DNA of 50,701 nucleotides, taken from the NCBI GenBank assembly GCA_030609055.1, contig JAUWCZ010000002.1, positions 1 to 50,701 on the forward strand, written 5' to 3'. Shown piece after piece: positions 3,393 through 50,701 of the stretch (positions are counted from its first letter, which is position 1; every line of letters starts with the position of its first letter). The position numbers and the translations under genes were made by a program. Below the pieces are notes generated by a model. It searched no databases. It saw only the letters and a list, made by a program, of their open reading frames with translations, and was not told the DNA's origin. The stretch is from Chloroflexota bacterium. GTDB lineage: Bacteria; Chloroflexota; Anaerolineae; Anaerolineales; UBA11858.

Positions 3393-4169
3393 TCAAACCT
3401 CCCCAGGGTAATGCTTCTGAAATTCCTCCACAATCAACCATAAATCCCCCGGCAGAAACTGCTTGACTCCGTTGATGATATCTTCCGGTATCTCTCTGTA
3501 AAATGCCTGGGCTATAGCCCCTGCAATGCAGGCAAGTGTATCACTGTCTCCTCCCAGGGAGATCGCTTTTCTGATTGCATCTTCATAATTTATTGAGTCA
3601 AGAAAGGCGATAATCGCTTCTGGAACCGACCCCTGACAAGAGACATCAAATCTGTAACCAGGGCGGATGATATCCACAGTCCGGTTAAGATCATAAGAAA
3701 AATCCTTTGAGATTCTGGTTCTGATCTCGGACTTGGAAGCTCCCTGCCGGGCTAGAAAGATTGCCAGAGCAACTCCTTGCGCTCCTTTGATCCCTTCAAT
3801 ATGGTCATGGGATACCCGGGCGCTATTCTCGGCCTCCCGGAGGACATCTTGTTCTGTATTAAACGCAAAACCGATCGGGCTGACCCGCATGGCTGAGCCG
3901 TTGCCCCAGCTGCCATAAGGTTCGACTTTTTCCTCAAAAATCCATTTGTAAAAACTTCCCCCATACCCAGCCCGGGGATAGTTCCTACCAAAAGATTTCA
4001 TCACCAGACCATACTCCCGTTTAAGCAGAATTGCTTGGGCGACTGCCAGGGTCATTACGGTATCATCAGTAAATCGTGACTGGGGGTGGAAAAGAGGAAA
4101 TTCCATCGTTTTGATCGGGTGATGTTCGTATACTGAACCGATGATATCTCCTGCAATGGCTCCCAGCAT
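3393..4169 (-). CDS. ADP-ribosylglycohydrolase family protein
   Basis: 258 aa with an MLGAIAGDIIGSxYE N-terminus, FTDDT, and a C-terminal GGDSDTLACIAGAIAQA metal-site motif, all characteristic of the family. Confidence 0.8.
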   Translation of the reverse strand: MLGAIAGDIIGSVYEHHPIKTMEFPLFHPQSRFTDDTVMTLAVAQAILLKREYGLVMKSFGRNYPRAGYGGSFYKWIFEEKVEPYGSWGNGSAMRVSPIGFAFNTEQDVLREAENSARVSHDHIEGIKGAQGVALAIFLARQGASKSEIRTRISKDFSYDLNRTVDIIRPGYRFDVSCQGSVPEAIIAFLDSINYEDAIRKAISLGGDSDTLACIAGAIAQAFYREIPEDIINGVKQFLPGDLWLIVEEFQKHYPGEV

Positions 4170-4300
4170 AATACCTCCTAGAATTGAGGTGGGTATAGGA
4201 TTGATTTATCTAGAATCCTATGACATACTTCCATTCTTCGCAAGAGAAAAACTTCTAATTTGAGTATAATGAATGCAGATGAAAGACTTGAGGATTACCT

Positions 4301-5503
4301 ATGGATGAGAAAGAGACCAAGATTAACCAGGATGAACCTGAACTGATCACCAAAGTCGGTTCACTTCAGGAATTGCTTGAGCGTGCTTCAGGTGTGCGGG
4401 CAATTGTAGATCACGAGCTGGAGGATGCCGGATTAGCGGAAAGTATCCCTTTTCCGTTCTTAGCGCTAGTTGGACAACAACAGGTGAAGCTCTCGCTGTT
4501 GTTGTCCCTCTTGAATCCTAACCTGAGTGGCGTACTGCTGATCGGTCCGCGGGGAACAGGAAAATCAACCGCTGTGCGTAGTTTGGTGGATTTGCTCCCC
4601 GATGTAAAACGCAGTCTGTGTTATTACGGCTGTTTAGAAGAAGACCTTGAAACCGGAGGGATAGATGCAGTTTGCCCAGATTGCGCTAAAAAATATGGTG
4701 AGGGAGATCCACTCTCAAGGTTAGAAAAAATCCGTCTGGTTGAACTGCCGCTAAACGCCACACTCGAAGATGTAGTAGGTGGGCTAGATCCCAGAGCAAA
4801 AGCAAATTCCCGCTTACAGTTAAAGCGGGGTATCTTGTCCCGGGCAGACCGAAATTTACTCTATGTAGATGAGGTCAACCTGCTTAACGATCAGATTGTG
4901 GATGCTATTCTAGATGCCGCTGCCCAGGGGCAGTATACGGTTCGTCGAGGTCCGATGTCGGCAACCTACCGATCAAATTTCACACTGATCGGTTCCATGA
5001 ATCCGGAAGAAGGTCATCTCCGGCCTCAAATAATGGACCGATTTGGATTGCGCGTGGTTGTAGAGGGTTTGGAAAGTAAACAGGACCGGTTAGAAGCTTA
5101 TCAGCGGACTCGGGCCTATCGGGAAAGCAGCCGGGCTTTTGTTGCTCAGTATGCCTCTGCTACTCAACTGTTTAAGGAGGAAATCCAAGCTAGCCGGGAA
5201 ACTATGAAGGATATTGAACTACCTGAGGAAGTCGCCCAGACTGGTTTGGAATTGATCGAAAATCTAGAGGTGGATTCTCTCCGGGCGGAAATCACCTTGT
5301 TTGAAGCAGCCCGAGCCCATGCCGCGGCGGATGCCCGGGATCAAGTCACATTGGAGGATATCAGGGCTGTAGCTCCTATGGCTCTTCGGTTGAGGCGATC
5401 CAGCTTTATTGACCAATATATTGCCGACCAGAGTTCAGAAACCGAATTACTGGAAAAAGCCATCAACGAACTGATTCCTGGCGGGGATACCAAAAAGGAT
5501 TAG
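4301..5503 (+). CDS. AAA+ ATPase of the Mg-chelatase subunit I (ChlI/BchI) family
   Basis: 400 aa with Walker A GPRGTGKST, Walker B LLYVDEVNLL, and the ChlI-type FPFxAxVGQ N-terminal motif. A Cys4 insert, CYYGC...CPDC, is present. Confidence 0.7.
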   Translation: MDEKETKINQDEPELITKVGSLQELLERASGVRAIVDHELEDAGLAESIPFPFLALVGQQQVKLSLLLSLLNPNLSGVLLIGPRGTGKSTAVRSLVDLLPDVKRSLCYYGCLEEDLETGGIDAVCPDCAKKYGEGDPLSRLEKIRLVELPLNATLEDVVGGLDPRAKANSRLQLKRGILSRADRNLLYVDEVNLLNDQIVDAILDAAAQGQYTVRRGPMSATYRSNFTLIGSMNPEEGHLRPQIMDRFGLRVVVEGLESKQDRLEAYQRTRAYRESSRAFVAQYASATQLFKEEIQASRETMKDIELPEEVAQTGLELIENLEVDSLRAEITLFEAARAHAAADARDQVTLEDIRAVAPMALRLRRSSFIDQYIADQSSETELLEKAINELIPGGDTKKD

Positions 5504-5509
5504 CCGGTT

Positions 5510-6076
5510 ATGGGCAATCTATCAGTGATTGGGGGGAAAGCTAAAGGATTTAAACTGCAGTCTGTACCGGGAGGGGGAACCAGGCCGATTATGGCCATGG
5601 TTAAAGCCGCGTTATTTAATATCGTATCTCCTTATATCCTTGATTCTGCCTGGCTGGATTTATATGCCGGAACCGGAAGTGTGGGGATTGAAGCGCTCAG
5701 CCGGGGCGCGTCATTTGCCAGGTTTGTTGACGTTCAAAAAGCTGCCATCAAAACGATTCATGCCAACCTGGAGCACACCGGATTGGCAGATCAGGCTGAA
5801 GTCTGGCATAAAAATACCTATTCCGCCTTGGATGACCTTCCAGATCGCAGGTTTGATTTTGTGTATATTGCCCCGCCGCAGTTTAAGAACATCTGGTTTA
5901 AAACCCTGCAAACACTTGACCAGAATCCAGACTGGCTGGTGGAGGACAGCTGGGTAATCATCCAGATAGACCGGGTGGAATACGAGCAGCAAATCCTTGA
6001 TAATTTGAAGTTATTTGACCGCCGAACCTACGGCAGTACAGAATTGATTTTTTATATGGTGGCTGAGGGAGTTTAA
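5510..6076 (+). CDS. rsmD: 16S rRNA (guanine966-N2)-methyltransferase
   Basis: 188 aa with VIGGKAKGFKL..GTRP, the SAM motif LDLYAGTGSVGIEALSRGA, and an IAPPQF (DPPY-like) motif. Confidence 0.8.
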   Translation: MGNLSVIGGKAKGFKLQSVPGGGTRPIMAMVKAALFNIVSPYILDSAWLDLYAGTGSVGIEALSRGASFARFVDVQKAAIKTIHANLEHTGLADQAEVWHKNTYSALDDLPDRRFDFVYIAPPQFKNIWFKTLQTLDQNPDWLVEDSWVIIQIDRVEYEQQILDNLKLFDRRTYGSTELIFYMVAEGV

Positions 6077-6095
6077 TCCGGGGGATTATCTATGC

Positions 6096-6602
6096 TCAGT
6101 TTTTCGTAAAATCTACCACCAATTCCCCATGCTGGTTGTAATGGTAATGTGCAAAAAACGGATCGTCTCCCCGGGTATGGGCAATTACTCTGGGAAGCAA
6201 CACTGGTAAATCTTCAACCAGGTTTTTAGCCTGAATATCACTTATAGGCACCCACTCTAATTCACCTTCATTTGATACTTGAGGATTGCCCTCGGAGCAG
6301 ATCCCTTTCATGACATAGATGCCAATACCTATACTATCCCCTGAATCTACAGTTACTGTTCCGCACAACCAGAGTGCTTCAGGTGCTAATCCTGTTTCTT
6401 CCAGTAGTTCACGCTTCGCGGCAGTGAGTACATCCTCTCCTTGTTCAACATGTCCACCGACACCATTGTAGCGGTTGGACCACAATCGCTTATCCGAAGC
6501 TCCTTTTAATAACAAAACTGATTCCCCGCGGGTGATAAAAATCAACGTGCGGGGAATCAGCATATAACGGTCTCTACTAACTCCCTGGTCAGAGGCTGGC
6601 AT
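6096..6602 (-). CDS. NUDIX hydrolase
   Basis: 168 aa with the Nudix box GGHVEQGEDVLTAAKRELLEETGL. It sits directly downstream of the aldolase gene. Confidence 0.85.
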   Translation of the reverse strand: MPASDQGVSRDRYMLIPRTLIFITRGESVLLLKGASDKRLWSNRYNGVGGHVEQGEDVLTAAKRELLEETGLAPEALWLCGTVTVDSGDSIGIGIYVMKGICSEGNPQVSNEGELEWVPISDIQAKNLVEDLPVLLPRVIAHTRGDDPFFAHYHYNQHGELVVDFTKN

Positions 6603-6603
6603 A

Positions 6604-8064
6604 TTAATCCGCCAGATCTGTGGTATCTTCTTTTTTTACTCCCCCAAGCAAGTAATCTTCCAATTTGGGTTCGATTACTACCTCCTGGATATATTGATCA
6701 ACATATTTCCGGGTATCCGCCACGCCAAGACATTCAAATAAGTTACGGAATTGAACATCCCAGGCAGCGATGATTTTTGCCAGCTGATCATCGGCGATAT
6801 CCCAGATTTGTTTCTTGAATACTCCCAAGGCGCGTTTGCGAGTTTTGTAATAAAACTGTTCATCCGTTTGACCAGATTTACGTTCGTGGGTGTGATTTTT
6901 ATCCAGGTAGGCATATATTTCGCCCACAAGTTCCTCGGGCAGTTCATTATAGAGTATGTTTTGGAAATTGGTTGCAAGGTGGACTTCAAGGGTTTCATAT
7001 TCAGCAAATTTATTGAAGGCGCTTTCAGGCAGTGTTGAAGCGCCGTGTTGAACAGCACCGCCCAACCCGTAACTTTCCCGGGATACTTTCCCTAGATGTT
7101 TGAGGAGATCAAAATCCACTGCAACCTCTTTGATGCTGCCGTCAGGCAGAACCACACCACCGTGAGATGTACCGGTCAGAACACTGATTTTGCTTAATCC
7201 AACTACTCCTGGAGCTATCTTTTCGAGGTCGGTTTTATAGTTATCAAGAAAGGCCAGTAATTCTTCCTCAGTGGAGTTTTCTTCCCCGACTTCACCGATT
7301 TCTCCACCAATAGAGACTGTAATTCCCTCCGGTTCCAAATCCCGGATGTATTTGGAGAACATTGCTGTTAGCTCTGAGTTCAGGACTTGCTGTTCAACAA
7401 CGGATGCCTTACTCAGATCAACCAGCGTTGAGGCATCCACATCGATATTGTAAAAACCAGCATTTAACGCTTCCAGAGTGAGTTCCTTTACAGATTGGAT
7501 TTCCGGATCGGGATTTTCCTTATACCGCGAGGCGGAGATCTGGTAATGATCTCCCTGAATAAAAACCGGACCTTTGTAGCCGGCAGCTATAGCAGCGCCT
7601 AGAACATTGGCTGCATATTCTGAAGGTCTTTGATCAGTATATCCGGTTTCTGATCTGGCAATTTCAAATATATAAGCACCTGCGTCAGCCTCAATGGCGA
7701 TCTGAAAGATGATTTTCGCAGCATAAAAAGTAAGACCGCGCAGGTTAATTGCTGGTGTGGTGAAGTTATTTGGAATCTCACCCCGTCCGCGAGCGAGATA
7801 GAGATCATGGATAGAGTTTGGATAAACGCCAGCAGCTGCGGCAATTCGCCGGATGAGGTAGCGAGCAAGATATCGCCGATTTTCTTTTTCATCTAAGACA
7901 GCTGCTCGGACAAGCGCTTCAATGCTTCCGCGAAGTTTTTCCTCATCGAGGATGTTGATTTGGTTGTCTTTGAGCTCTACAGAGCCGTTCAAAAGTTGTA
8001 TAAGTTCCAGTTGCTGTTCAAGGTACATTTTATCTCCTATCAATGATTCATGACTCGATTTCAT
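6604..8064 (-). CDS. Class II (metal-dependent) ketose-bisphosphate aldolase family protein, long form
   Basis: The ORF is open to 8100. The start was chosen at ATG 8064 (MKSSHES), 8 nt after GGAGAGGG; ATG 8028 is an alternative. Family motifs present are FIQGDHYQ, IDVDAS, GGEIGEVG, GTSHGG and VQHGAST. Substrate is not determinable. Confidence 0.55.
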   Translation of the reverse strand: MKSSHESLIGDKMYLEQQLELIQLLNGSVELKDNQINILDEEKLRGSIEALVRAAVLDEKENRRYLARYLIRRIAAAAGVYPNSIHDLYLARGRGEIPNNFTTPAINLRGLTFYAAKIIFQIAIEADAGAYIFEIARSETGYTDQRPSEYAANVLGAAIAAGYKGPVFIQGDHYQISASRYKENPDPEIQSVKELTLEALNAGFYNIDVDASTLVDLSKASVVEQQVLNSELTAMFSKYIRDLEPEGITVSIGGEIGEVGEENSTEEELLAFLDNYKTDLEKIAPGVVGLSKISVLTGTSHGGVVLPDGSIKEVAVDFDLLKHLGKVSRESYGLGGAVQHGASTLPESAFNKFAEYETLEVHLATNFQNILYNELPEELVGEIYAYLDKNHTHERKSGQTDEQFYYKTRKRALGVFKKQIWDIADDQLAKIIAAWDVQFRNLFECLGVADTRKYVDQYIQEVVIEPKLEDYLLGGVKKEDTTDLAD

Positions 8065-8200
8065 TATAAACCCTCTCCATCTATCTGCAAGGGAAAGCAT
8101 TATCAGAACCCTGTTAATTCGAGTTAAGCAAGTCCCGGGTGCATGTGTTTTATCATGTATAATAAAAAATGCAGGAACGAGATTTCATAGAGGAGGAAAA

Positions 8201-8716
8201 ATGACTGATTACCAGAGCCAAATAGAATCCCAACGGGGCAAATTAAAAGAGTTGCTCCTAAAGGTACCCGGGTTTAAAGGGTACATCGAACTTGAAGACC
8301 GCCGCACTGCAGATAAAATCTTACGAGAGGCTGTAGCGGACCGTTTCCAGGAACAGCTGGACCGGATAACCGCAATACAGACTGAATTTGTCGATCAGGG
8401 TGACCTAGCGTATGTGGATGATCTTGAAACTATTGTGGTAAAAATTCGTACATTTATTGACAGGATCAGGCATGCTGCTTATGGCTATTCCAGTTTCTTT
8501 TCTGCCCTGAAAATCGATGCGGATGTGCTGGATAAAATCTATGATTATGATCAAGCCTTACTGGGGGGTGTAGATATCATTAAAAACACCCTGGAGACTC
8601 TGGCAGCAGCCGAGGATCCTGAACAAATCAAAGCATTGATTAAAGACTTGAAAGAATACGCTCAGGATATTGTGACAAAAGCAGACCAGCGCAAAGATGA
8701 AATCACCAATGAATAA
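8201..8716 (+). CDS. Hypothetical alpha-helical protein, co-oriented with the SPFH gene
   Basis: 171-aa ORF after a GGAGGA RBS. It is charged and helical (coiled-coil-like), and I recognise no family. Confidence 0.5.
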   Translation: MTDYQSQIESQRGKLKELLLKVPGFKGYIELEDRRTADKILREAVADRFQEQLDRITAIQTEFVDQGDLAYVDDLETIVVKIRTFIDRIRHAAYGYSSFFSALKIDADVLDKIYDYDQALLGGVDIIKNTLETLAAAEDPEQIKALIKDLKEYAQDIVTKADQRKDEITNE

Positions 8717-8747
8717 GTTTCAGATAAAGTAAAGAGGAGAAGACTCC

Positions 8748-9779
8748 ATGGCCAGGATTTTTGATGTAATTGAATACCCGAATGAGATGCAAGATGAACT
8801 GATACACCGTTTCCCGGAAGGGGAATCGGGAGATTTCCGGATTGGCTCCCAGGTGATTGTCCGTGAGTCACAAACTGCGGTCTTTTTCCGGGATGGAAAA
8901 GCACTGGATTCTTTTGGACCTGGACGCCATACCATTACCACAGCAAATATTCCCTTACTGATTAACTTAATTGAAAAAGCTTTTTCTGATAGAACGCCAT
9001 TTACCGCGGAGGTTTATTTTGTCTCCCGCCGGGAATTCCCTGATGAGAAATGGGGTACTCCCCAACCAATTATCGTCCGCAATCCCGGTATGGGCTTAGG
9101 CGTGGCACTGCTAAAAGGGTTTGGGACCTATGGTTACCAGATTTCTGAGCCGCAGCAGTTTGTAACACAGCTGGTCGGCGCGCAGGGAATCTTCCGAACT
9201 CAGGATATTGAAAACCGACTCCGCCATATATTACTGACCAATTTAAGCGATCTACTGGGTGATACAGCCCGAGAAAATGATGTCACAAATCTAGTTGGCA
9301 TGCTGAATGAAATCAGCGCCTCCGTTCGGGCAAAGGCCAGTGATCAGTTTGCAGCCTTGGGATTGGAGTTAAAGACCTTCTTAGTCGCAAACCTGCGTCC
9401 CTCCGAGCAATCCATTCAAGAACTTCGCGATATGGGTGTGCTGGATTTGGAAACCTATACTCGCCTGCAAGCAGCGGATGCCCTGCTTGAGGCAGCTCAA
9501 AATCCCAGCGGAGGTGCAGGATTAACAGCTGGTATTGGTGCTGGAATGGGAATTGGAAATATTATCAACCAATCGCTTCAAGATATGACGGGCGGTGCAG
9601 CCGCTGCCGCTAGTGCAGTGCTCCCGGACGTGATGAGCCCGGCCGAAGCAGCTCAAGTCCTGAAGGTCTCCGAGGAAGATGTACTGGCTGCCATTAAAGC
9701 TGGCGATTTAAAAGGTAAAAAACTTGGCAAGGCTTACCGCATCAGTAAAGAAGCTCTGAAGGCTTTCTTAAATGAATAA
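8748..9779 (+). CDS. SPFH-domain protein of the YdjI/COG4260 type with a C-terminal excisionase-type HTH
   Basis: 343 aa. The N-terminal ~280 aa are colinear with B. subtilis YdjI-like proteins (VIEYPNE..LIHRFPE..VIVRESQTAVFFRDGKALDSFGPGRH..AEVYFVSRREF..KWGT). The last ~50 aa (MSPAEAAQVLKVSEEDVLAAIKAGDLKGKKLGKAYRISKEALKAFL) look like a MerR/excisionase HTH_17 domain. Confidence 0.7.
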   Translation: MARIFDVIEYPNEMQDELIHRFPEGESGDFRIGSQVIVRESQTAVFFRDGKALDSFGPGRHTITTANIPLLINLIEKAFSDRTPFTAEVYFVSRREFPDEKWGTPQPIIVRNPGMGLGVALLKGFGTYGYQISEPQQFVTQLVGAQGIFRTQDIENRLRHILLTNLSDLLGDTARENDVTNLVGMLNEISASVRAKASDQFAALGLELKTFLVANLRPSEQSIQELRDMGVLDLETYTRLQAADALLEAAQNPSGGAGLTAGIGAGMGIGNIINQSLQDMTGGAAAAASAVLPDVMSPAEAAQVLKVSEEDVLAAIKAGDLKGKKLGKAYRISKEALKAFLNE

Positions 9780-39021: not shown

Positions 39022-39140
39022 AGGAAATGAGCTCCGGACAGGCACACCGGCGGCACCCAGAGAATCCTCCTTAGTGCTGCTTCCTTTCGGATCTGACACG
39101 GTTCGTAGGGCTCTGCCGCGCCGGACCCACCCGAAGCTCG
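39022..39140 (-). ncRNA. ffs: Signal recognition particle RNA (small, 4.5S-like)
   Basis: The minus strand reads ...GAGCTTCGGGTGGGTCCGGCGCGGCAGAGCCCTACGAACCGTGTCAGATCCGAAAGGAAGCAGCACTAAGGAGGATTCTCTGGGTGCCGCCGGTGTGCCTGTCCGGAGCTCATTT. It contains the universally conserved domain IV core (GUCAGrUCCGrAAGGAAGCAGC) and a closing helix GAGCTTCGG/CCGGAGCTC. Ends are approximate, within about 10 nt. Confidence 0.8.
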
Positions 39141-39714: not shown

Positions 39715-39801
39715 CGGAGGGGGTGGGATTCGAACCCACGATCCCGTAAGGAATACGCGCTCTCCAAGCGCGCGCACTAGGCCAGACTATGCGACCCCTC
39801 C
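39715..39801 (-). tRNA. tRNA-Ser (anticodon GGA), class II
   Basis: The minus strand reads GGAGGGGTCGCATAGTCTGGCCTAGTGCGCGCGCTTGGAGAGCGCGTATTCCTTACGGGATCGTGGGTTCGAATCCCACCCCCTCCG. Acceptor GGAGGGG/CCCCTCC, anticodon stem CGCGC/GCGCG with loop TTGGAGA (GGA), a long variable arm, and T arm GTGGG-TTCGAAT-CCCAC. CCA is not encoded. Confidence 0.9.
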
Positions 39802-45351: not shown

Positions 45352-47238
45352 ATGTATATCATCGGAACAGCGGGACACGTCGATCACGGAAAATCCACCC
45401 TTATAGAAGCCATTACCGGAACCCATCCAGACCGGCTGCAGGAGGAACGCGACCGGGAAATGAGCATTGTGCTGGGGTTTGATTCCTTTCAGCTTCCCGA
45501 TGGAAAACAAATCAGTGTTGTAGATGTGCCAGGGCATCGGGATTTTATTGAAAATATGCTTTCAGGTATTGGGGCGATTGATGCCTGCCTGTTTGTGATA
45601 GCAGCTGATGAAGGGGTGATGCCACAAACCAGGGAGCACTTGGCCATCCTGGATTTGCTGGAAGTTAATAAAGGCGTCATTGCCTTAACCAAAGTGGACC
45701 TTGTGGATGATAAGGAGTGGTTAGATCTGGTTGAGATAGAAATCCAGGACCTGATAAATTCAACGGCTTTATCGGATGCTCCAATTATCCGTGTATCTGC
45801 TAAGCAGAAAACTGGCCTGGATAAGTTGTTGGAAGCGCTCAGTCAGGTACTTAAGGATCAACCTCCCCGGATTAACCTTGGCCGCCCTCGTCTATCAATA
45901 GACAGAGTATTTATTATGGCGGGTTTTGGATCCGTGGTTACTGGGACCCTGCTGGATGGTGTGTTATCAGTGGGGGATGAGGTAACCATCTTACCCGGAG
46001 GTAAGACAGGAAGAATTCGGGGATTACAGACTCATAATCAAGATTTGAAAGAAGTAAGTCCTGGACTGCGTACGGCGGTAAATATATCCGGGATTGATAA
46101 TAAGGATATAAAACGGGGTGATATTGTAGCCCATCCGGGTGATTATTCCCCGACCCGACGCCTGGATGTGCAGTTTCGCTATCTGGGTGACCTGGATACG
46201 CCTCTCAAGCACGATGTTGAAACAAAACTTTTCCTTGGAGCGGATGAAACCATCGCCCGGGTTCGGCTGCTGGGTACAGATGGTGTCAAACCAGGAAAAA
46301 CCGCCTGGCTGCAGCTGGAGGTAGAGGATCCAGTGATTGCCGTGAGGGGAGATCGATATATTTTACGGAGACCTTCTCCATCGGAAACTCTCGGGGGCGG
46401 GATTGTCCTTGATCCCCATCCTCCCTTCCGGCATAAACGGTTTGATCAGGAAGCACTGGATCGCCTGGAAGCGCTCTCCGGGGGAGACCCGCTGGATGTG
46501 CTGCGGCAAACTATCTCAAGGGCTGGGATTGGGCTTTTAAACGAAGTGCTGAATCAATCCGGATTGGAGGTAATTACTGCCAGGGAAGCGCTGGATCAAC
46601 TGTTGTCAGCCGAGGTTGTCCTCTTAATCGGTGAGGAAGATTCAAGCGATCAGCTAATCGCTCTTCGCTTGCTGTGGGAGAAGAACAAGATTGACCTGAT
46701 TGAAAAATTAAAACAATACCATCAGGATTATCCACTCCGGGGTGGTATGTCTCTCGAGGAACTGAAAAGCCAATCCGGGCTGGCTGATCCGGTGTTCAAA
46801 CAAGTGATTCAGGGGTTAATTCAGACCGAAGAAATCACTCGGCAAGGCCCCGCGGTGGGGATGAAGGGTTTTGAGATCAAGTTGTCGCCTGATCAAAATA
46901 AGAAAGTAAAGGGGCTGATGAATCAATTTGCCGCTAATCCAACACAGCCACCCTCGGTTAAAAATTGCCGGGAGGAACTTGGAGAGGATATATATAACGC
47001 CCTTCTCACACTGGGAAAACTAATGCAGATCTCTCCGGAAGTAGTGTTTACCCCGGATACGTATCAAAATATGGTTGCTGAAATCATCTCTAAGATTAAG
47101 GATGATGGTCCAGTAACTGTGGCTCAGGTGCGGGATCTGTTTGGCAGCAGCCGCAAGTATATGTTGGCTTTTTTGGAGAAACTGGACGAGGAGGGAGTTA
47201 CCATCCGTGAGGGGGACATTCGCCGCTTGAAGGAGTGA
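45352..47238 (+). CDS. selB: Selenocysteine-specific translation elongation factor
   Basis: 628 aa with the N-terminus MYIIGTAGHVDHGKSTLIEAITG, DVPGH and TKVD G-motifs, EF-Tu-like domains II/III, and a ~280-aa C-terminal winged-helix extension typical of bacterial SelB. Confidence 0.9.
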   Translation: MYIIGTAGHVDHGKSTLIEAITGTHPDRLQEERDREMSIVLGFDSFQLPDGKQISVVDVPGHRDFIENMLSGIGAIDACLFVIAADEGVMPQTREHLAILDLLEVNKGVIALTKVDLVDDKEWLDLVEIEIQDLINSTALSDAPIIRVSAKQKTGLDKLLEALSQVLKDQPPRINLGRPRLSIDRVFIMAGFGSVVTGTLLDGVLSVGDEVTILPGGKTGRIRGLQTHNQDLKEVSPGLRTAVNISGIDNKDIKRGDIVAHPGDYSPTRRLDVQFRYLGDLDTPLKHDVETKLFLGADETIARVRLLGTDGVKPGKTAWLQLEVEDPVIAVRGDRYILRRPSPSETLGGGIVLDPHPPFRHKRFDQEALDRLEALSGGDPLDVLRQTISRAGIGLLNEVLNQSGLEVITAREALDQLLSAEVVLLIGEEDSSDQLIALRLLWEKNKIDLIEKLKQYHQDYPLRGGMSLEELKSQSGLADPVFKQVIQGLIQTEEITRQGPAVGMKGFEIKLSPDQNKKVKGLMNQFAANPTQPPSVKNCREELGEDIYNALLTLGKLMQISPEVVFTPDTYQNMVAEIISKIKDDGPVTVAQVRDLFGSSRKYMLAFLEKLDEEGVTIREGDIRRLKE

Positions 47239-47486
47239 AAGATCTACTCCAGCTGGGGCCAGCCCTTATTTTCATTGCCGATCTGTAAAACACCATACAA
47301 TACTGCTATATGGGGGATAGGATCAGGCACCAATTATTAATGCCTGATGGTGAGTAAAATCACCAGGGGAGATTAGCTCCGAGCCTTAACATCATTATAG
47401 CGAAAGAAAACTAAGATTCTTGTGATTCCCTGGGACGGCATCCCTCTCAGTGTATATACTATCTAAGGAGGCCAATCTGCAACTGA

Positions 47487-48077
47487 TCACAAGAATCGGG
47501 ATGTTTCCCGCCTGTACTCAGGATAGGTTTCCCCGTATTGTTCTTCAAGCCAGATTTCTTCTGCCAAAGGTGTAATCAAGAATACGAGAATTAATAAAAA
47601 ATGTGTGATCCAGAGATAAAGTGAATTTGCCATGAGACTCAATCCGAGGAACAATACCATATCCCCAATATATTGTGGGTTGCGAGTAAATCTGTAGGGT
47701 CCATCCTTGATAAATCCAGCTGGGAGCCCGGAGGTATTCTTTCCTCCCAATACCCGAATCGCCCAGATAAGTAAGAGAGGACCAATCAGAATAAGGGGTA
47801 CTCCGATAATTAATCTGAGAGGGCTTTTCATCACCCAAGAATTCCAATCGAAAATAATTAGTAAGGCGTTGAACCCAAAAACCAGATAGAAACTAATCCA
47901 TGTCAAGTAATATTGCCAGGTATTCTTAGACGGGGGAGGCCATATGCGTTTGCCGGGTACCGCGACAGACCAAATTACACCGATTAGAAGCACAAATAGA
48001 ACAACCACATCGACCCAGAATAGAGTTGAGACAAAATTTAGCATAAATAAAATCCTTTCTTCGAATGAATTGGACAT
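47487..48077 (-). CDS. Isoprenylcysteine carboxyl / phospholipid methyltransferase-family membrane protein
   Basis: 196 aa with 4-5 TM helices and GPYRFTRNPQYIGDMVLFLG plus EE..LEEQYGETYPEYRRETSRF motifs of the ICMT/PEMT superfamily. Confidence 0.7.
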   Translation of the reverse strand: MSNSFEERILFMLNFVSTLFWVDVVVLFVLLIGVIWSVAVPGKRIWPPPSKNTWQYYLTWISFYLVFGFNALLIIFDWNSWVMKSPLRLIIGVPLILIGPLLLIWAIRVLGGKNTSGLPAGFIKDGPYRFTRNPQYIGDMVLFLGLSLMANSLYLWITHFLLILVFLITPLAEEIWLEEQYGETYPEYRRETSRFL

Positions 48078-48183
48078 CCTTACGGATGTTCATTACTTAG
48101 CTCTTTGATCTTCTCCGCTTGACGTGTTTCCTCCTTCAGCTAAAAGACGGAGCTTTCCCCCAGACTGACCCATACGTGGGGAG
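48078..48183 (-). repeat. attC-like intergenic repeat, copy D (degenerate)
   Basis: The minus strand reads TAGCTCCCCACG...GAACATCCGTAAGGA immediately before the ATG of the 47487-48077 ORF. Its 5' and 3' blocks are related to copies A-C, but the AAC/GTT cores are eroded. Confidence 0.35.
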
Positions 48184-48597
48184 CTACTCCAGAATAAGGT
48201 TGAGTGTGTTGTAAATATGCATTCCCGTCTGCTCCTGATAGATATGGATGAACGTACCAACACTCAGGTCAATAGCTTGTTCGTAAGGCTGACCGCCGTC
48301 GACTATGACTTGGACAATGATGTCCTTCTTGGGAGATGAACCGACTGCGAGCATCTTTGTCCCTTGAAGCTGCGCAAACCCCTCAATCTCATCGGTGCCA
48401 ATCACGGAGATCACCTCGCGGTCATCAATCATGACCTGAACCGATTTTCCCAGGAAACCATAACCAAGTCCGACCTTGTATTCGTATTGAGGAGAAGGGT
48501 CGGTCACCCTCGGCTCTTCATGCGACTGAGTCTCGCCCATACAGGATGTGGTGAGGACGAGCATAAGTATTAGTAGTGTTGCATAACGTAAAATCAT
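48184..48597 (-). CDS. Hypothetical lipoprotein-like protein
   Basis: Start chosen at ATG 48597 (MILRYATLLILMLVLTTSC, a signal peptide with a lipobox-like Cys). I recognise no family. Confidence 0.45.
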   Translation of the reverse strand: MILRYATLLILMLVLTTSCMGETQSHEEPRVTDPSPQYEYKVGLGYGFLGKSVQVMIDDREVISVIGTDEIEGFAQLQGTKMLAVGSSPKKDIIVQVIVDGGQPYEQAIDLSVGTFIHIYQEQTGMHIYNTLNLILE

Positions 48598-48603
48598 ACG
48601 AGC

Positions 48604-48645
48604 TCCCAACGGATGATGTGTGCGAAGGGAAAGCGGAGGTTAGCC
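48604..48645 (-). repeat. attC-like intergenic repeat, copy C (short)
   Basis: The minus strand reads GGCTAAC-CTCCG-CTTTCCCTTCGCACACATCATCC-GTTGGGA. The TAA stop of the upstream ORF lies inside GGCTAAC. Confidence 0.4.
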
Positions 48646-49116
48646 GGCGAGTTCGTTGTCGGAAGAGGAGATGTCTACTCTCCAACGATTAGGAAAGAAT
48701 ACAATCCAGGAGATAGAGCCAAATAAAGTCATCAGGAACTGAAGGAAGGGAGAGATTAGAACCATTAAAATTATCCATCCAATAAAGCTTGCGCGAGGTG
48801 AATACAGGATCATTGGGATTCCAAAATTGGCTAGATCGCGGGTGGAATCAAATAGCCAGGTGAGGGTTGGAAGCCAGATGAACGCCATAATCACTAATGT
48901 CACCGCGGAAGGAATTAGTGCAGCTTTCAGAATTAACGAAAGATTTTGAGTAGATAGCTCGGACGGTGTCCGAAGAATCCTGGGAATAAACAATCCTAAA
49001 AGAAAACCAAGCAGGATTGTAAAAATCGGAACCCCCATACCCATGGCGATGGATAAGATCTCAAGAAATAAAAAAACAATAATCCGCAGTGGTTTATTAG
49101 ATATTACGCGCCTCAT
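48640..49116 (-). CDS. Hypothetical four-TM membrane protein
   Basis: 158-aa ORF with an ATG 10 nt after GGAG. It is hydrophobic throughout, and I recognise no family. Confidence 0.45.
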   Translation of the reverse strand: MRRVISNKPLRIIVFLFLEILSIAMGMGVPIFTILLGFLLGLFIPRILRTPSELSTQNLSLILKAALIPSAVTLVIMAFIWLPTLTWLFDSTRDLANFGIPMILYSPRASFIGWIILMVLISPFLQFLMTLFGSISWIVFFPNRWRVDISSSDNELAG

Positions 49117-49168
49117 CTAATGAATCTCCAATTAAGATACTTGTTATCTGAAGTGAATTCCCTTTGTC

Positions 49169-49273
49169 ACCTAACGGAAGAGCTTCGCGAAGCATCCTGA
49201 GCCTGCGAAGGGCACCCGTCCTGAGTAGCCCCGCAGGGGCGTATCGAAGGGTCAGGTGGAGCGGGGGTTAGCA
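49169..49273 (-). repeat. attC-like intergenic repeat, copy A
   Basis: The minus strand reads TGCTAAC-CCCCG-CTCCACCTGA...(internal hairpins GCCCC-TGC-GGGGC and GCTTCG/CGAAGC)...GAAGCTCTTCC-GTTAGGT. The 3' box matches GTTRRRY exactly. It starts 2 nt after the TAG stop of the 396-aa ORF. Confidence 0.45.
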
Positions 49274-49275
49274 CA

Positions 49276-50463
49276 CTAAAATGGTTTATACGATTCAATA
49301 TCAAGTATATCCGATAAGGATTTCCCTTTAAACAACCGCATCTTGTCCCCAATTAATAATGACTGATTGAGGTTATTTAAAACAGAAGTGTATTCTTGAC
49401 TCGCCCATGGGTTGTGGTAAAGACAAATAGTAGCGTCATGTATGCTCCAGGGTCTGAGATTTATAGCCACTAGTACACCACTGATCCGCGAATAACGTGG
49501 ACCGATTGGGTTTGTCCATGCGCCGTTTCTGATACGAGAGAAGACAATATCCTCTTCAGTTATTTTCCTATTTGGGTTGATGGGAACTTGGAATTGTTCT
49601 TGACCAAATAACGCATTCATAACATCTATTTCATCAACAAATTCGAGACAGTTGATTGCTACAACAAAAGGGCATGACAGTTTTCCATAGCGTTTAGCTT
49701 TTCTCGTTACAGCCCTTCGAATAGGAGTTCGATGATCTACAAATTCTACTTCACCAGAATGGATAACAATAGGACCTGGGGATGATGAGCTTTTTCTTTG
49801 GTCAAGAATAGGTATTGGTTCAAAAATCAAGACACAGCCATTTGCATTGAAGCTCCATTTTGGAAGTTTATTATATTTCTTATTGATGAATAATTCTTTG
49901 ATATTGTTAATTTCAAGGCTGTCGATATTCTTATTTAGCTCTGAAGCTATTTTTTTTGCGCTAGGTGGTTTTTTTGGAAAACCTTGACTTTCTAATGCAA
50001 GCCAGTAATCTCGCGAAACGATCATTCTATTCAAATTTTTTAATAACTCAGTCAATCTTTCTTCTTCTGCTTGCCTTTTTTTGGATTTTCCCGTCACCAC
50101 AGTTGCTTCAACATATGATTCGCAAGAATTTGAATCCACAATATAGAAATCTGGAACTGTTGTTTTCTCTGTTTCGGTTTCTTTATGTAATGTAACCTTG
50201 GCGTTCAATTTTAAATGCAATTCATGAAGGATTAATTCAAAAAATGCACTTTGAAAGCTTATTGAATTGGATGATTGGAACCTACCCTTTAAATCTTTTT
50301 TCCCCTGGCTTGGGAATAGTGTAAACCAATCTTCCAGCATATTGCGGATGGCAATGTATTCAGTAATCGTTGAAGTTGCTAAAGAATCATAATCAGATCT
50401 TGTACTCTTACCAATTATGATTTCTTTTAATGATTTATTATCGAAAAGCGTAATTTCGGACAT
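49276..50463 (-). CDS. Hypothetical protein on visibly AT-rich DNA, possible PD-(D/E)xK-like nuclease fold
   Basis: 395 aa from ATG 50463 (the track ORF begins one codon earlier at TTG). VPDFYIVDSNSCESYVEATVV resembles a PD...ExK-type core, but the Lys is not conserved. I recognise no family. Confidence 0.45.
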   Translation of the reverse strand: MSEITLFDNKSLKEIIIGKSTRSDYDSLATSTITEYIAIRNMLEDWFTLFPSQGKKDLKGRFQSSNSISFQSAFFELILHELHLKLNAKVTLHKETETEKTTVPDFYIVDSNSCESYVEATVVTGKSKKRQAEEERLTELLKNLNRMIVSRDYWLALESQGFPKKPPSAKKIASELNKNIDSLEINNIKELFINKKYNKLPKWSFNANGCVLIFEPIPILDQRKSSSSPGPIVIHSGEVEFVDHRTPIRRAVTRKAKRYGKLSCPFVVAINCLEFVDEIDVMNALFGQEQFQVPINPNRKITEEDIVFSRIRNGAWTNPIGPRYSRISGVLVAINLRPWSIHDATICLYHNPWASQEYTSVLNNLNQSLLIGDKMRLFKGKSLSDILDIESYKPF

Positions 50464-50493
50464 CAATATCCAAGAAGAAATACTATAATGTTG

Positions 50494-50551
50494 TGCTAAC
50501 GGATGAGCTCAGCGGCGCGATCCTCAGCGTCCGCTGGAGTGGGGGTTAGCT
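50494..50551 (-). repeat. attC-like intergenic repeat, copy B (best folded)
   Basis: The minus strand reads AGCTAAC-CCCCA-CTC(C)AGCGG-ACGCTGAGGATCGCG-CCGCTGAG-CTCATCC-GTTAGCA. TAAC/GTTA pair, the CCCCA/CTCATCC spacer is unpaired, CTC-AGCGG/CCGCT-GAG pair with one bulged C, and the loop is 15 nt. Confidence 0.5.
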
Positions 50552-50701
50552 GGCCAATTCACAGGTAGAGTTCCAAAAGCGGCCAAATTGCATCATTTGC
50601 TAATCTCGGTTTCTGAAACAATCGCTTCATTAACACTTGACCGGATATGAAGAGTCTTACCAGCTCCAAATCCAGACCTAGTTTCTGGATCATATGTATT
50701 G

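Follow-up and report, generated by a model that had tools for sequence, protein, structure and literature searches.

The window analysed here is the whole of contig JAUWCZ010000002.1 (50,701 nt; assembly GCA_030609055.1) from a bacterium of the Chloroflexota. The subject is a series of minus-strand open reading frames (ORFs) and structured repeats in its last 3.4 kb, which are read as part of an integron gene-cassette array in which the repeats are attC recombination sites. Proceeding from the contig edge along the minus strand, the ORF listing gives the order edge ORF, copy B, 395-aa ORF, copy A, ORF with four predicted transmembrane segments (4-TM), copy C, lipoprotein-like ORF, copy D and PEMT ORF. 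A spacer of 250 nt separates the last of these from the convergent 3′ end of selB (Table 1). The window ends at 50701, and this contig end cuts the array 150 nt beyond attC B. Homologues of SelB (57–98 % identity) all come from Anaerolineales or Chloroflexota, and the organism is therefore placed in the Anaerolineales. The probability that the ORF–attC units are cassettes recombined by an integron integrase (IntI) is put at about 0.9.

ORFs and repeats lie where the preliminary description placed them, and the differences in base composition that it saw by eye are borne out by a range of 35.8 to 48.3 % GC. The low value belongs to the 395-aa ORF, whereas equally long windows in the rest of the contig average 45.7 ± 1.9 % and never fall below 40.5 %, and the high value to the lipoprotein-like ORF; the PEMT and 4-TM ORFs are both at 42.5 %. 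As had also been described, the TAA stop of the 4-TM ORF falls within GGCTAAC, the R″ box of copy C, and the distance from a GTT box to the next ORF start is short (6 to 53 nt). The reading frame noted between copy B and the window edge belongs to a cassette ORF. Its homologues (P0142–P0147, 83–97 % identity) were found in reading frame 1 only and indicate a full-length family of 100–151 aa, and in a related strain (locus L212) the ORF is complete and lies between two attC sites. The PEMT ORF is probably the last cassette gene, and the region between its stop codon and the point where homology with a relative is lost is probably the end of the array. An exact 25-mer from the contig end had no match in JGI metagenomes.

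Table 1. Features of the array and its flank, from the contig edge towards selB
Feature	Position	Strand	Basis or remark
Edge cassette ORF, 3′ end (35 codons and TGA stop)	50593..50700	-	Cut by contig end
attC B, 57 nt, intact	50495..50551	-	R1, fold, orthologues
Mobile cassette, 1325 nt, from TT of the R′ box of B to G of the R′ box of A; 395-aa ORF and attC A	49175..50499	-	Missing in L120
395-aa cassette ORF, function unknown	49276..50463	-	ORF listing
attC A, 104 nt	49170..49273	-	R1
158-aa cassette ORF, four predicted transmembrane segments	48640..49116	-	ORF listing
attC C, 41-nt remnant	48605..48645	-	R1
137-aa lipoprotein-like ORF, ATG at 48597	48184..48597	-	ORF listing
Copy D, eroded attC relic	about 48078..48185	-	L132 comparison
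185-aa PEMT/ICMT-family methyltransferase ORF, true start ATG at 48044	47487..48044	-	Pfam PF04191, E 5e-17
PEMT stop codon to homology boundary (47310) with 93 % relative; probable end of array	47311..47486	-	L121 alignment
selB, conserved core gene flanking and converging on the array	45352..47238	+	ORF listing, homologues

The attC family and its fold

The exact 5′ box GCTAACCYCCRCT occurs three times, at 50538–50550, 49260–49272 and 48632–48644, always on the minus strand and within the last 2.1 kb of the 50.7 kb. Copies A and B alone in the window carry the full 3′ box. When one genome per species was scanned for GCTAACCCCCRCTCCA, many of the matches were due to chance, but a coherent set came from metagenome-assembled genomes (MAGs) of Anaerolineales and Chloroflexia, and in this set the motif is followed after 53–130 nt by CRGGTGAGCTCATCCGTTAGG. 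An alignment of 23 sites (A1), all from other genomes and including no window sequence, was used to build a covariance model (R1), which was run on the whole window with filters off. Copy B was recovered at 58.7 bits (E 1.7e-13), copy A at 27.4 bits (E 4.4e-05) and copy C at 18.9 bits (E 0.0085). The next best match had an E-value of 1.4, so that the other 48 kb hold no copies.

The family fold consists of an R helix (GCTAAC/GTTAGC), two unpaired spacers, CCCCG (5 nt) and CTCATCC (7 nt), an L helix and a variable loop. In A1, 90 % of cells are paired under this structure, compared with 27–39 % when the partners are slid, and six pairs change on both sides, with a covariation score above all 500 shuffles. 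The L helix is 96 % paired and has five pairs changing on both sides. AAC and GTT are invariant in the 23 external copies, which are 57–135 nt long with conserved ends and variable middles; loop length in the family ranges from 8 to about 85 nt. Two bases remain unpaired on the 5′ arm of the L helix, C and A on the coding strand and thus G and T on the bottom strand. They occupy A1 columns 16 (C) and 22 (A), have no partner, lie on the arm opposite the AAC of the bottom strand and are 5–6 bp apart, the distance varying with the choice of bulged base where two identical bases adjoin. In published attC sites, G16 and T23/24 are split by a 6-bp stem, the spacer measures 5–6 nt and short sites measure 57–70 nt (PMC5027507). 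The geometry of the family fits this anatomy, with G and T likewise unpaired and 5–6 bp apart.

Copy B is the clearest case. Its bottom strand folds with exactly one T and one G unpaired on one arm (z about −2), as had been described, and its orthologues lie at L120:13728–13784 and L212:2918–2974. In its 57 nt, R and L boxes, unpaired spacer and small loop it resembles the class 1 integron site attCaadA7 (57–70 nt; PMC5027507), as it does in the extrahelical G and T of the bottom strand, about 6 bp apart, and in the crossover, which would be placed at G/TT of the R′ box. It differs from attCaadA7 in that the family shares with it only the AAC/GTT core, in a spacer of 7 nt rather than 5–6 nt on the R′ side, and in being known from sequence alone. 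The terminal boxes had been likened in all four copies to RYYYAAC and GTTRRRY. The core of this likeness stands for B (AGCTAAC/GTTAGCA), A (TGCTAAC/GTTAGGT) and C (GGCTAAC/GTTGGGA), and it does not extend to D, where AAC is lost and GTT reads GTA.

Two loci in MAGs assigned to Neomarinimicrobiota/Marinimicrobia gave weak R1 matches (about 24 bits; L087 7483–7588 and L090 741–795) with the same 5′ end, GCTAACCCCCACTCCACC, which suggests that related attC sites may exist outside the Chloroflexota. The loops of the family fall into a few subtypes conserved between different MAGs (for example ...GGTTAAGGTGG...CAAACCAAGACCCGG, ...TTGGTTTTGGTTCTATAATCATTAAAAGC and ...TTTTATACTGATTAAG), seen at L010, L011, L016, L038, L057, L060, L076, L077, L098, L100 and L104. 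Some subtypes contain TATAAT or TATACT and were considered as internal promoters; this is not supported, as a consensus scan of the L077 array found 9 promoter-like sites against 19.5 in shuffled sequence. Compositional skew between the strands was too weak to serve as evidence (mean top-strand GC skew −0.08, negative in 16 of 26 sites).

Arrays and integrases in related genomes

Across the fetched loci of other genomes R1 gave 120 matches at E ≤ 0.01, reaching 11 in 8 kb. These matches are clustered and, within each locus, lie on one strand, an arrangement shared with the window that upholds the array reading of the preliminary description. Probing by tblastn brought up four loci with IntI-like genes (L057, L060, L088 and L029). 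The two complete genes match the ‘integron integrase’ model TIGR02249 (cutoff 265) at 449.8 bits (L057:2464–3426) and 443 bits (L060:5031–6020), covering profile positions 1–314 of 315. Each is oriented divergently from an array of this family that starts a few hundred bases from it. The L057 protein also aligns end to end with VchIntIA (PDB 2A3V; E 2e-87), including the IntI-specific region. The link to an integrase, for which the preliminary description had pointed beyond 50701, is thus found in related Chloroflexota, where the family adjoins divergent TIGR02249 integrases. The relative L029 (SelB 74 %) carries a 120-aa N-terminal IntI fragment, apparently truncated (5985–6347), beside at least four attC sites.

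Two arrays are present on CAVQGY010000002.1, a 1.3-Mb Chloroflexia contig. The array at 656–672 kb (L060/L077) adjoins a complete IntI, and that at 1008–1016 kb (L088) adjoins an IntI match covering residues 15–245 only. Two short contigs binned as Bacteroidales and Oscillospiraceae (L095 and L104) carry the Chloroflexota attC family. Where L095 bears attC sites its sequence is identical to that of L111, an Anaerolineales contig, and both placements are probably binning errors.

The distribution of the copies bears on two explanations unrelated to integrons. The first is that they are dispersed palindromes, similar to repetitive extragenic palindromes (REP) or bacterial interspersed mosaic elements (BIME), or else intrinsic terminators or regulatory hairpins. 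The copies do resemble REP/BIME in being short, GC-rich, imperfect palindromes in intergenic positions just past stop codons, and copy B is a stable GC-rich hairpin. They differ from them in not being dispersed, as the remaining 48 kb of the window is free of them, in forming dense arrays with a single strand per locus, and in being linked to integron integrases in relatives. Their loops are highly variable, and they bound precisely gained or lost units, with the differences between strains breaking exactly in the R′ box. For a terminator, conserved R and L boxes around a loop of such variable length are the reverse of what is needed. This explanation is regarded as very improbable.

The second explanation, of equally slight probability, is that the repeats are sites of another recombinase (Xer dif-like sites, pdif modules, or sites of some other tyrosine or serine recombinase) that came to resemble attC by convergence. 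No integrase is seen in this genome and the R″ box departs from RYYYAAC at one position, both of which would accord with it. However, the sites are long imperfect palindromes in which the spacer is asymmetric, G and T are unpaired and the loop varies, an architecture at odds with a dif-like site of 28 nt. Modules of the pdif type have alternating orientations, whereas all sites here share one orientation. Additionally, the recombinases found beside this attC family are IntI proteins with the IntI-specific region, as judged by TIGR02249 and by gap-free alignment to 2A3V.

Strain differences beside selB

Gene order upstream of selB is kept in L120–L124 (SelB 74–98 %), and the content downstream is not. 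Among relatives with SelB at 74–93 % these downstream ORFs do not behave as syntenic core genes, in agreement with the array reading. In relatives with SelB at 74–75 % the genes downstream of selB are entirely different and no attC site is present there. The closest relative, L120 (SelB 98 %), has selB and the PEMT, lipoprotein-like and 4-TM genes in the order of the window, followed by a single attC site of 57 nt. The left side and upstream flank of this site match copy B, the flank on its right corresponds to what lies right of copy A, and the switch occurs within CCGTTAG. The segment missing from L120 is exactly 1325 nt and comprises the 395-aa ORF with attC A, that is, a canonical cassette.

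A third arrangement is provided by L212, which belongs to the same assembly as the contig with 93 % SelB identity. It matches window positions 50497–50701 at 96.6 %, from the edge ORF through attC B, and directly after the GTTA of attC B it continues with a third, unrelated ORF or cassette. The three strains therefore diverge right after the CCGTTA of the R′ box of attC B, with the resolution limited to the 7 nt that they share. The variation of ORF-plus-repeat units between strains that the preliminary description had proposed to look for is thus present, with breakpoints inside the R′ box. Comparison of the strains shows the 395-aa cassette to have moved, as far as their sequences can tell, in or out of the array in recent strain history. 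L212, reached through the homologue of the edge ORF, gave this third arrangement and no integrase.

In L121 (SelB 93 %) the sequence ceases to resemble the window at 47310, which is 72 nt beyond selB, and there is no PEMT gene in the 209 nt that remain of that contig downstream of selB. In L123 and L124 (SelB 75 %) an IS110-family transposase lies directly downstream of selB (7768–8796 and 4002–5030, respectively). The array occupies this position in the window, so that insertions appear to recur at a hotspot just downstream of selB.

The region at 47.3–50.7 kb is best explained as the integrase-distal end of an integron cassette array in an Anaerolineales chromosome. The sequence shows its units to be built of a minus-strand ORF with an attC site behind it. 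In the proposed mechanism, the bottom strand of attC, which is the plus strand of the window, would fold with R paired, the spacer unpaired, L paired around the extrahelical G and T, and a variable loop. By analogy with known integrons, IntI would make its cut between the G and TT of the R′ box. A cassette would leave as a circle when the two attC sites around it recombine, and recombination with attI or another attC would re-insert it.

Some observations weigh against the reading of the units as IntI-recombined cassettes. Position 2 of the R″ box is G in copies A, B and C, where RYYYAAC has a pyrimidine. Copies A and C fold no better than shuffled sequence, copy C has no L box, and R1 does not detect copy D, either in the window or in the orthologous L132 contig. 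The tblastn probe, which included the window, found no IntI-like tyrosine recombinase in the 50.7 kb contig, and the 2.3 kb upstream of the first attC site in L212 contains metabolic genes on the cassette strand and no intI. Recombination, moreover, is deduced from differences between strains and was not directly observed.

The missing integrase may have its own explanation, which is a sub-case of the cassette reading rather than a competitor. The array may be an attC cluster that has no integron integrase with it (CALIN), an orphan array of genuine attC cassettes whose own integrase is absent and which was seeded secondarily or split off from an integron. IntI would then act in trans from elsewhere in the genome, or the array would be a decaying fossil. 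The window holds three R1-positive sites on one strand in 50.7 kb and no intI, two of the four intergenic sites are decayed, and the related L029 array has only the 120-aa IntI fragment. Directly upstream of its first attC site, L212 has on the cassette strand a 171-aa membrane ORF together with an AllG and a nitrilase-like gene; such metabolic genes, with no intI, lean towards an orphan array. CALINs are common, and half are in replicons that also encode IntI (PMC4889954). The array is like those described in that its attC sites number two or more and share a strand, that the contig has no intI, that it is small (about 3–5 sites) and that its cassettes are not resistance genes. On the other hand, a cassette has recently been gained or lost at attC B, which shows that the array has been acted on by an active integrase. 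L212 comes from another strain and is unjoined to the window contig, and its three upstream genes could form one long cassette. CALIN is also an operational label, and the absence of intI here may reflect a contig that ends inside the array. An orphan array is accordingly a serious possibility, a little short of even odds when taken alone; between a complete integron and a CALIN the balance for the array in the window is roughly level.

Site decay, cassette genes and known systems

R1 scores drop along the array towards selB, from 58.7 (B) to 27.4 (A), 18.9 (C) and no match (D). Copy C retains both R boxes and both spacers, and its L boxes and loop have been deleted; at 41 nt it is below the attC length range of about 57–141 nt and is probably inactive. 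Its orthologues score 14.9 bits in L120, where AAC has become AGC, and 27.5 bits in L132. Copy D has AGCT..CCCCACG at its 5′ end and CATCCGTAAGG at its 3′ end, with the AA of the AAC core lost and GTA in place of GTT. In the window alone its 3′ end has 3 mismatches in 14, no better than chance. In L132 the orthologous site has GCTCATCCGATAGG at its 3′ end, which agrees with the family consensus in 13/14 positions (chance expectation 0.01), and on account of this near-consensus end copy D is best read as a relic. The membership of D in the family, as proposed in the preliminary description, therefore stands in that form and not as a scored member; besides R1 missing it, short-word BLAST returns its own orthologue only. 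In L120, about 100 nt of region D are replaced by about 11 nt, leaving CGCTAAACCATTAGG.

Beyond the PEMT stop codon, a 5′ box with 2 mismatches, GCTAATCTCCCCT, lies at 47365–47377. A terminal attC site after the PEMT ORF was considered and rejected, as this degenerate 5′ box stands alone and R1 has no match in 47311–47486. The earlier statement that each of the four ORFs is followed by a repeat thus holds fully for the 395-aa ORF, followed by full-length copy A, and in reduced form for the 4-TM and lipoprotein-like ORFs, followed by remnant C and relic D, but not for the PEMT ORF, after which no repeat is recognisable. As C is without L boxes and D without the AAC/GTT core, it is probable that the three genes nearest selB in the array (4-TM, lipoprotein-like and PEMT) are frozen in position and can no longer be excised singly.

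Copy A contains an additional segment. It equals the 76-nt site type of L029:3592–3667 with a module of 28 nt, CCCTTCGCAGGCTCAGGATGCTTCGCGA, added where GGGTG meets AGCTC (window 49176–49203, minus strand), so that the L′ arm is split. The general form of the module is 20–30 nt, CCCTTCRC...GGATGCTTCGCRA, with the palindrome GCTTCGCGAAGC. A module occupies the same position in six other sites with different loops in other genomes (L015, L018, L021, L059, L076 and L088), and about 6 % of sites in the family carry one. Copy C keeps its first 10 nt, CCCTTCGCAC. It is a speculative and rather doubtful idea that the module marks a new structural subclass of attC with a protruding hairpin, perhaps a binding site for a host factor or regulator, or a brake on excision. 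Sites of this subclass might still recombine, because copy A bounds the recently gained or lost cassette.

The homologues of the cassette genes are themselves found in arrays. The family of the 395-aa protein is rare, with only 20 homologues among 5.8 billion clusters. In all five contexts inspected (L127–L131) an R1-positive attC site follows the stop codon at 3–6 nt, and in four of the five there are further array sites with differing neighbours, L129 and L130 being too short for more than one. Pfam and NCBIfam gave no match to this protein. PADLOC matches it weakly (E 3.2e-07, residues 39–137) to PD-T7-5, a candidate protein of anti-phage defence. An AlphaFold2 model is confident (predicted local distance difference test score, pLDDT, 88); the best Foldseek E-value against the PDB was 0.43, which is not significant, with only scattered PD-(D/E)xK nucleases among the weak matches.

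Homologues of the 4-TM protein at 62–89 % identity (L132–L134 and L136) are each followed directly by attC, full length in L133, L134 and L136, and have differing neighbours; homologues at 56 % identity or less are not beside attC sites. The lipoprotein-like ORF has 89 % identity to L120 and 86 % to L132, and a 137-aa gene is found at the same place in L120. A 185-aa PEMT gene is called in both L120 and L126, and a paralogous PEMT-like gene is part of the L022 array.

Integrons are best known for assembling antibiotic-resistance genes; most are on the chromosomes of environmental bacteria and are poorly described. Anaerolineales are abundant in sludge and sediments. The closest parallel to the arrays of this family is the superintegron of Vibrio cholerae with its V. 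cholerae repeats (VCR). Both have a homogeneous, lineage-specific attC family in dense one-strand arrays, mostly small ORFs of unknown function with toxin-antitoxin-like and defence-like cassettes, content that varies by strain, and (here in relatives) a divergent intI at one end of the array. The present case differs in its Chloroflexota (Anaerolineales) host, in an attC family unrelated to VCR in which several conserved loop subtypes coexist, in the L′-arm module of some sites, in a contig without intI, and in the decay of the two sites nearest selB.

Earlier work has described integrons from Chloroflexi/Chloroflexota (PMC4889954, PMC8618304), and sedentary chromosomal integrons typically have homogeneous attC families (PMC8618304). 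The array adds an Anaerolineales example with a lineage-specific attC family common to many Chloroflexota MAGs, and the current understanding of integrons is unchanged by it. The strain comparison contributes direct evidence for the gain or loss of a single cassette at the R′ box, and the array illustrates how sites at the far end may decay and thereby fix genes in place. R1 and the consensus GCTAACCCCCGCTCCACCYGA...CRGGTGAGCTCATCCGTTAGG could be employed to pull the cassettes of this clade from metagenomes.

At gathering thresholds, Rfam reported no attC family in the window; its only matches were ordinary core features, a small signal recognition particle (SRP) RNA at 39033–39132 (65.5 bits) and a tRNA at 39715–39801, on the minus strand.

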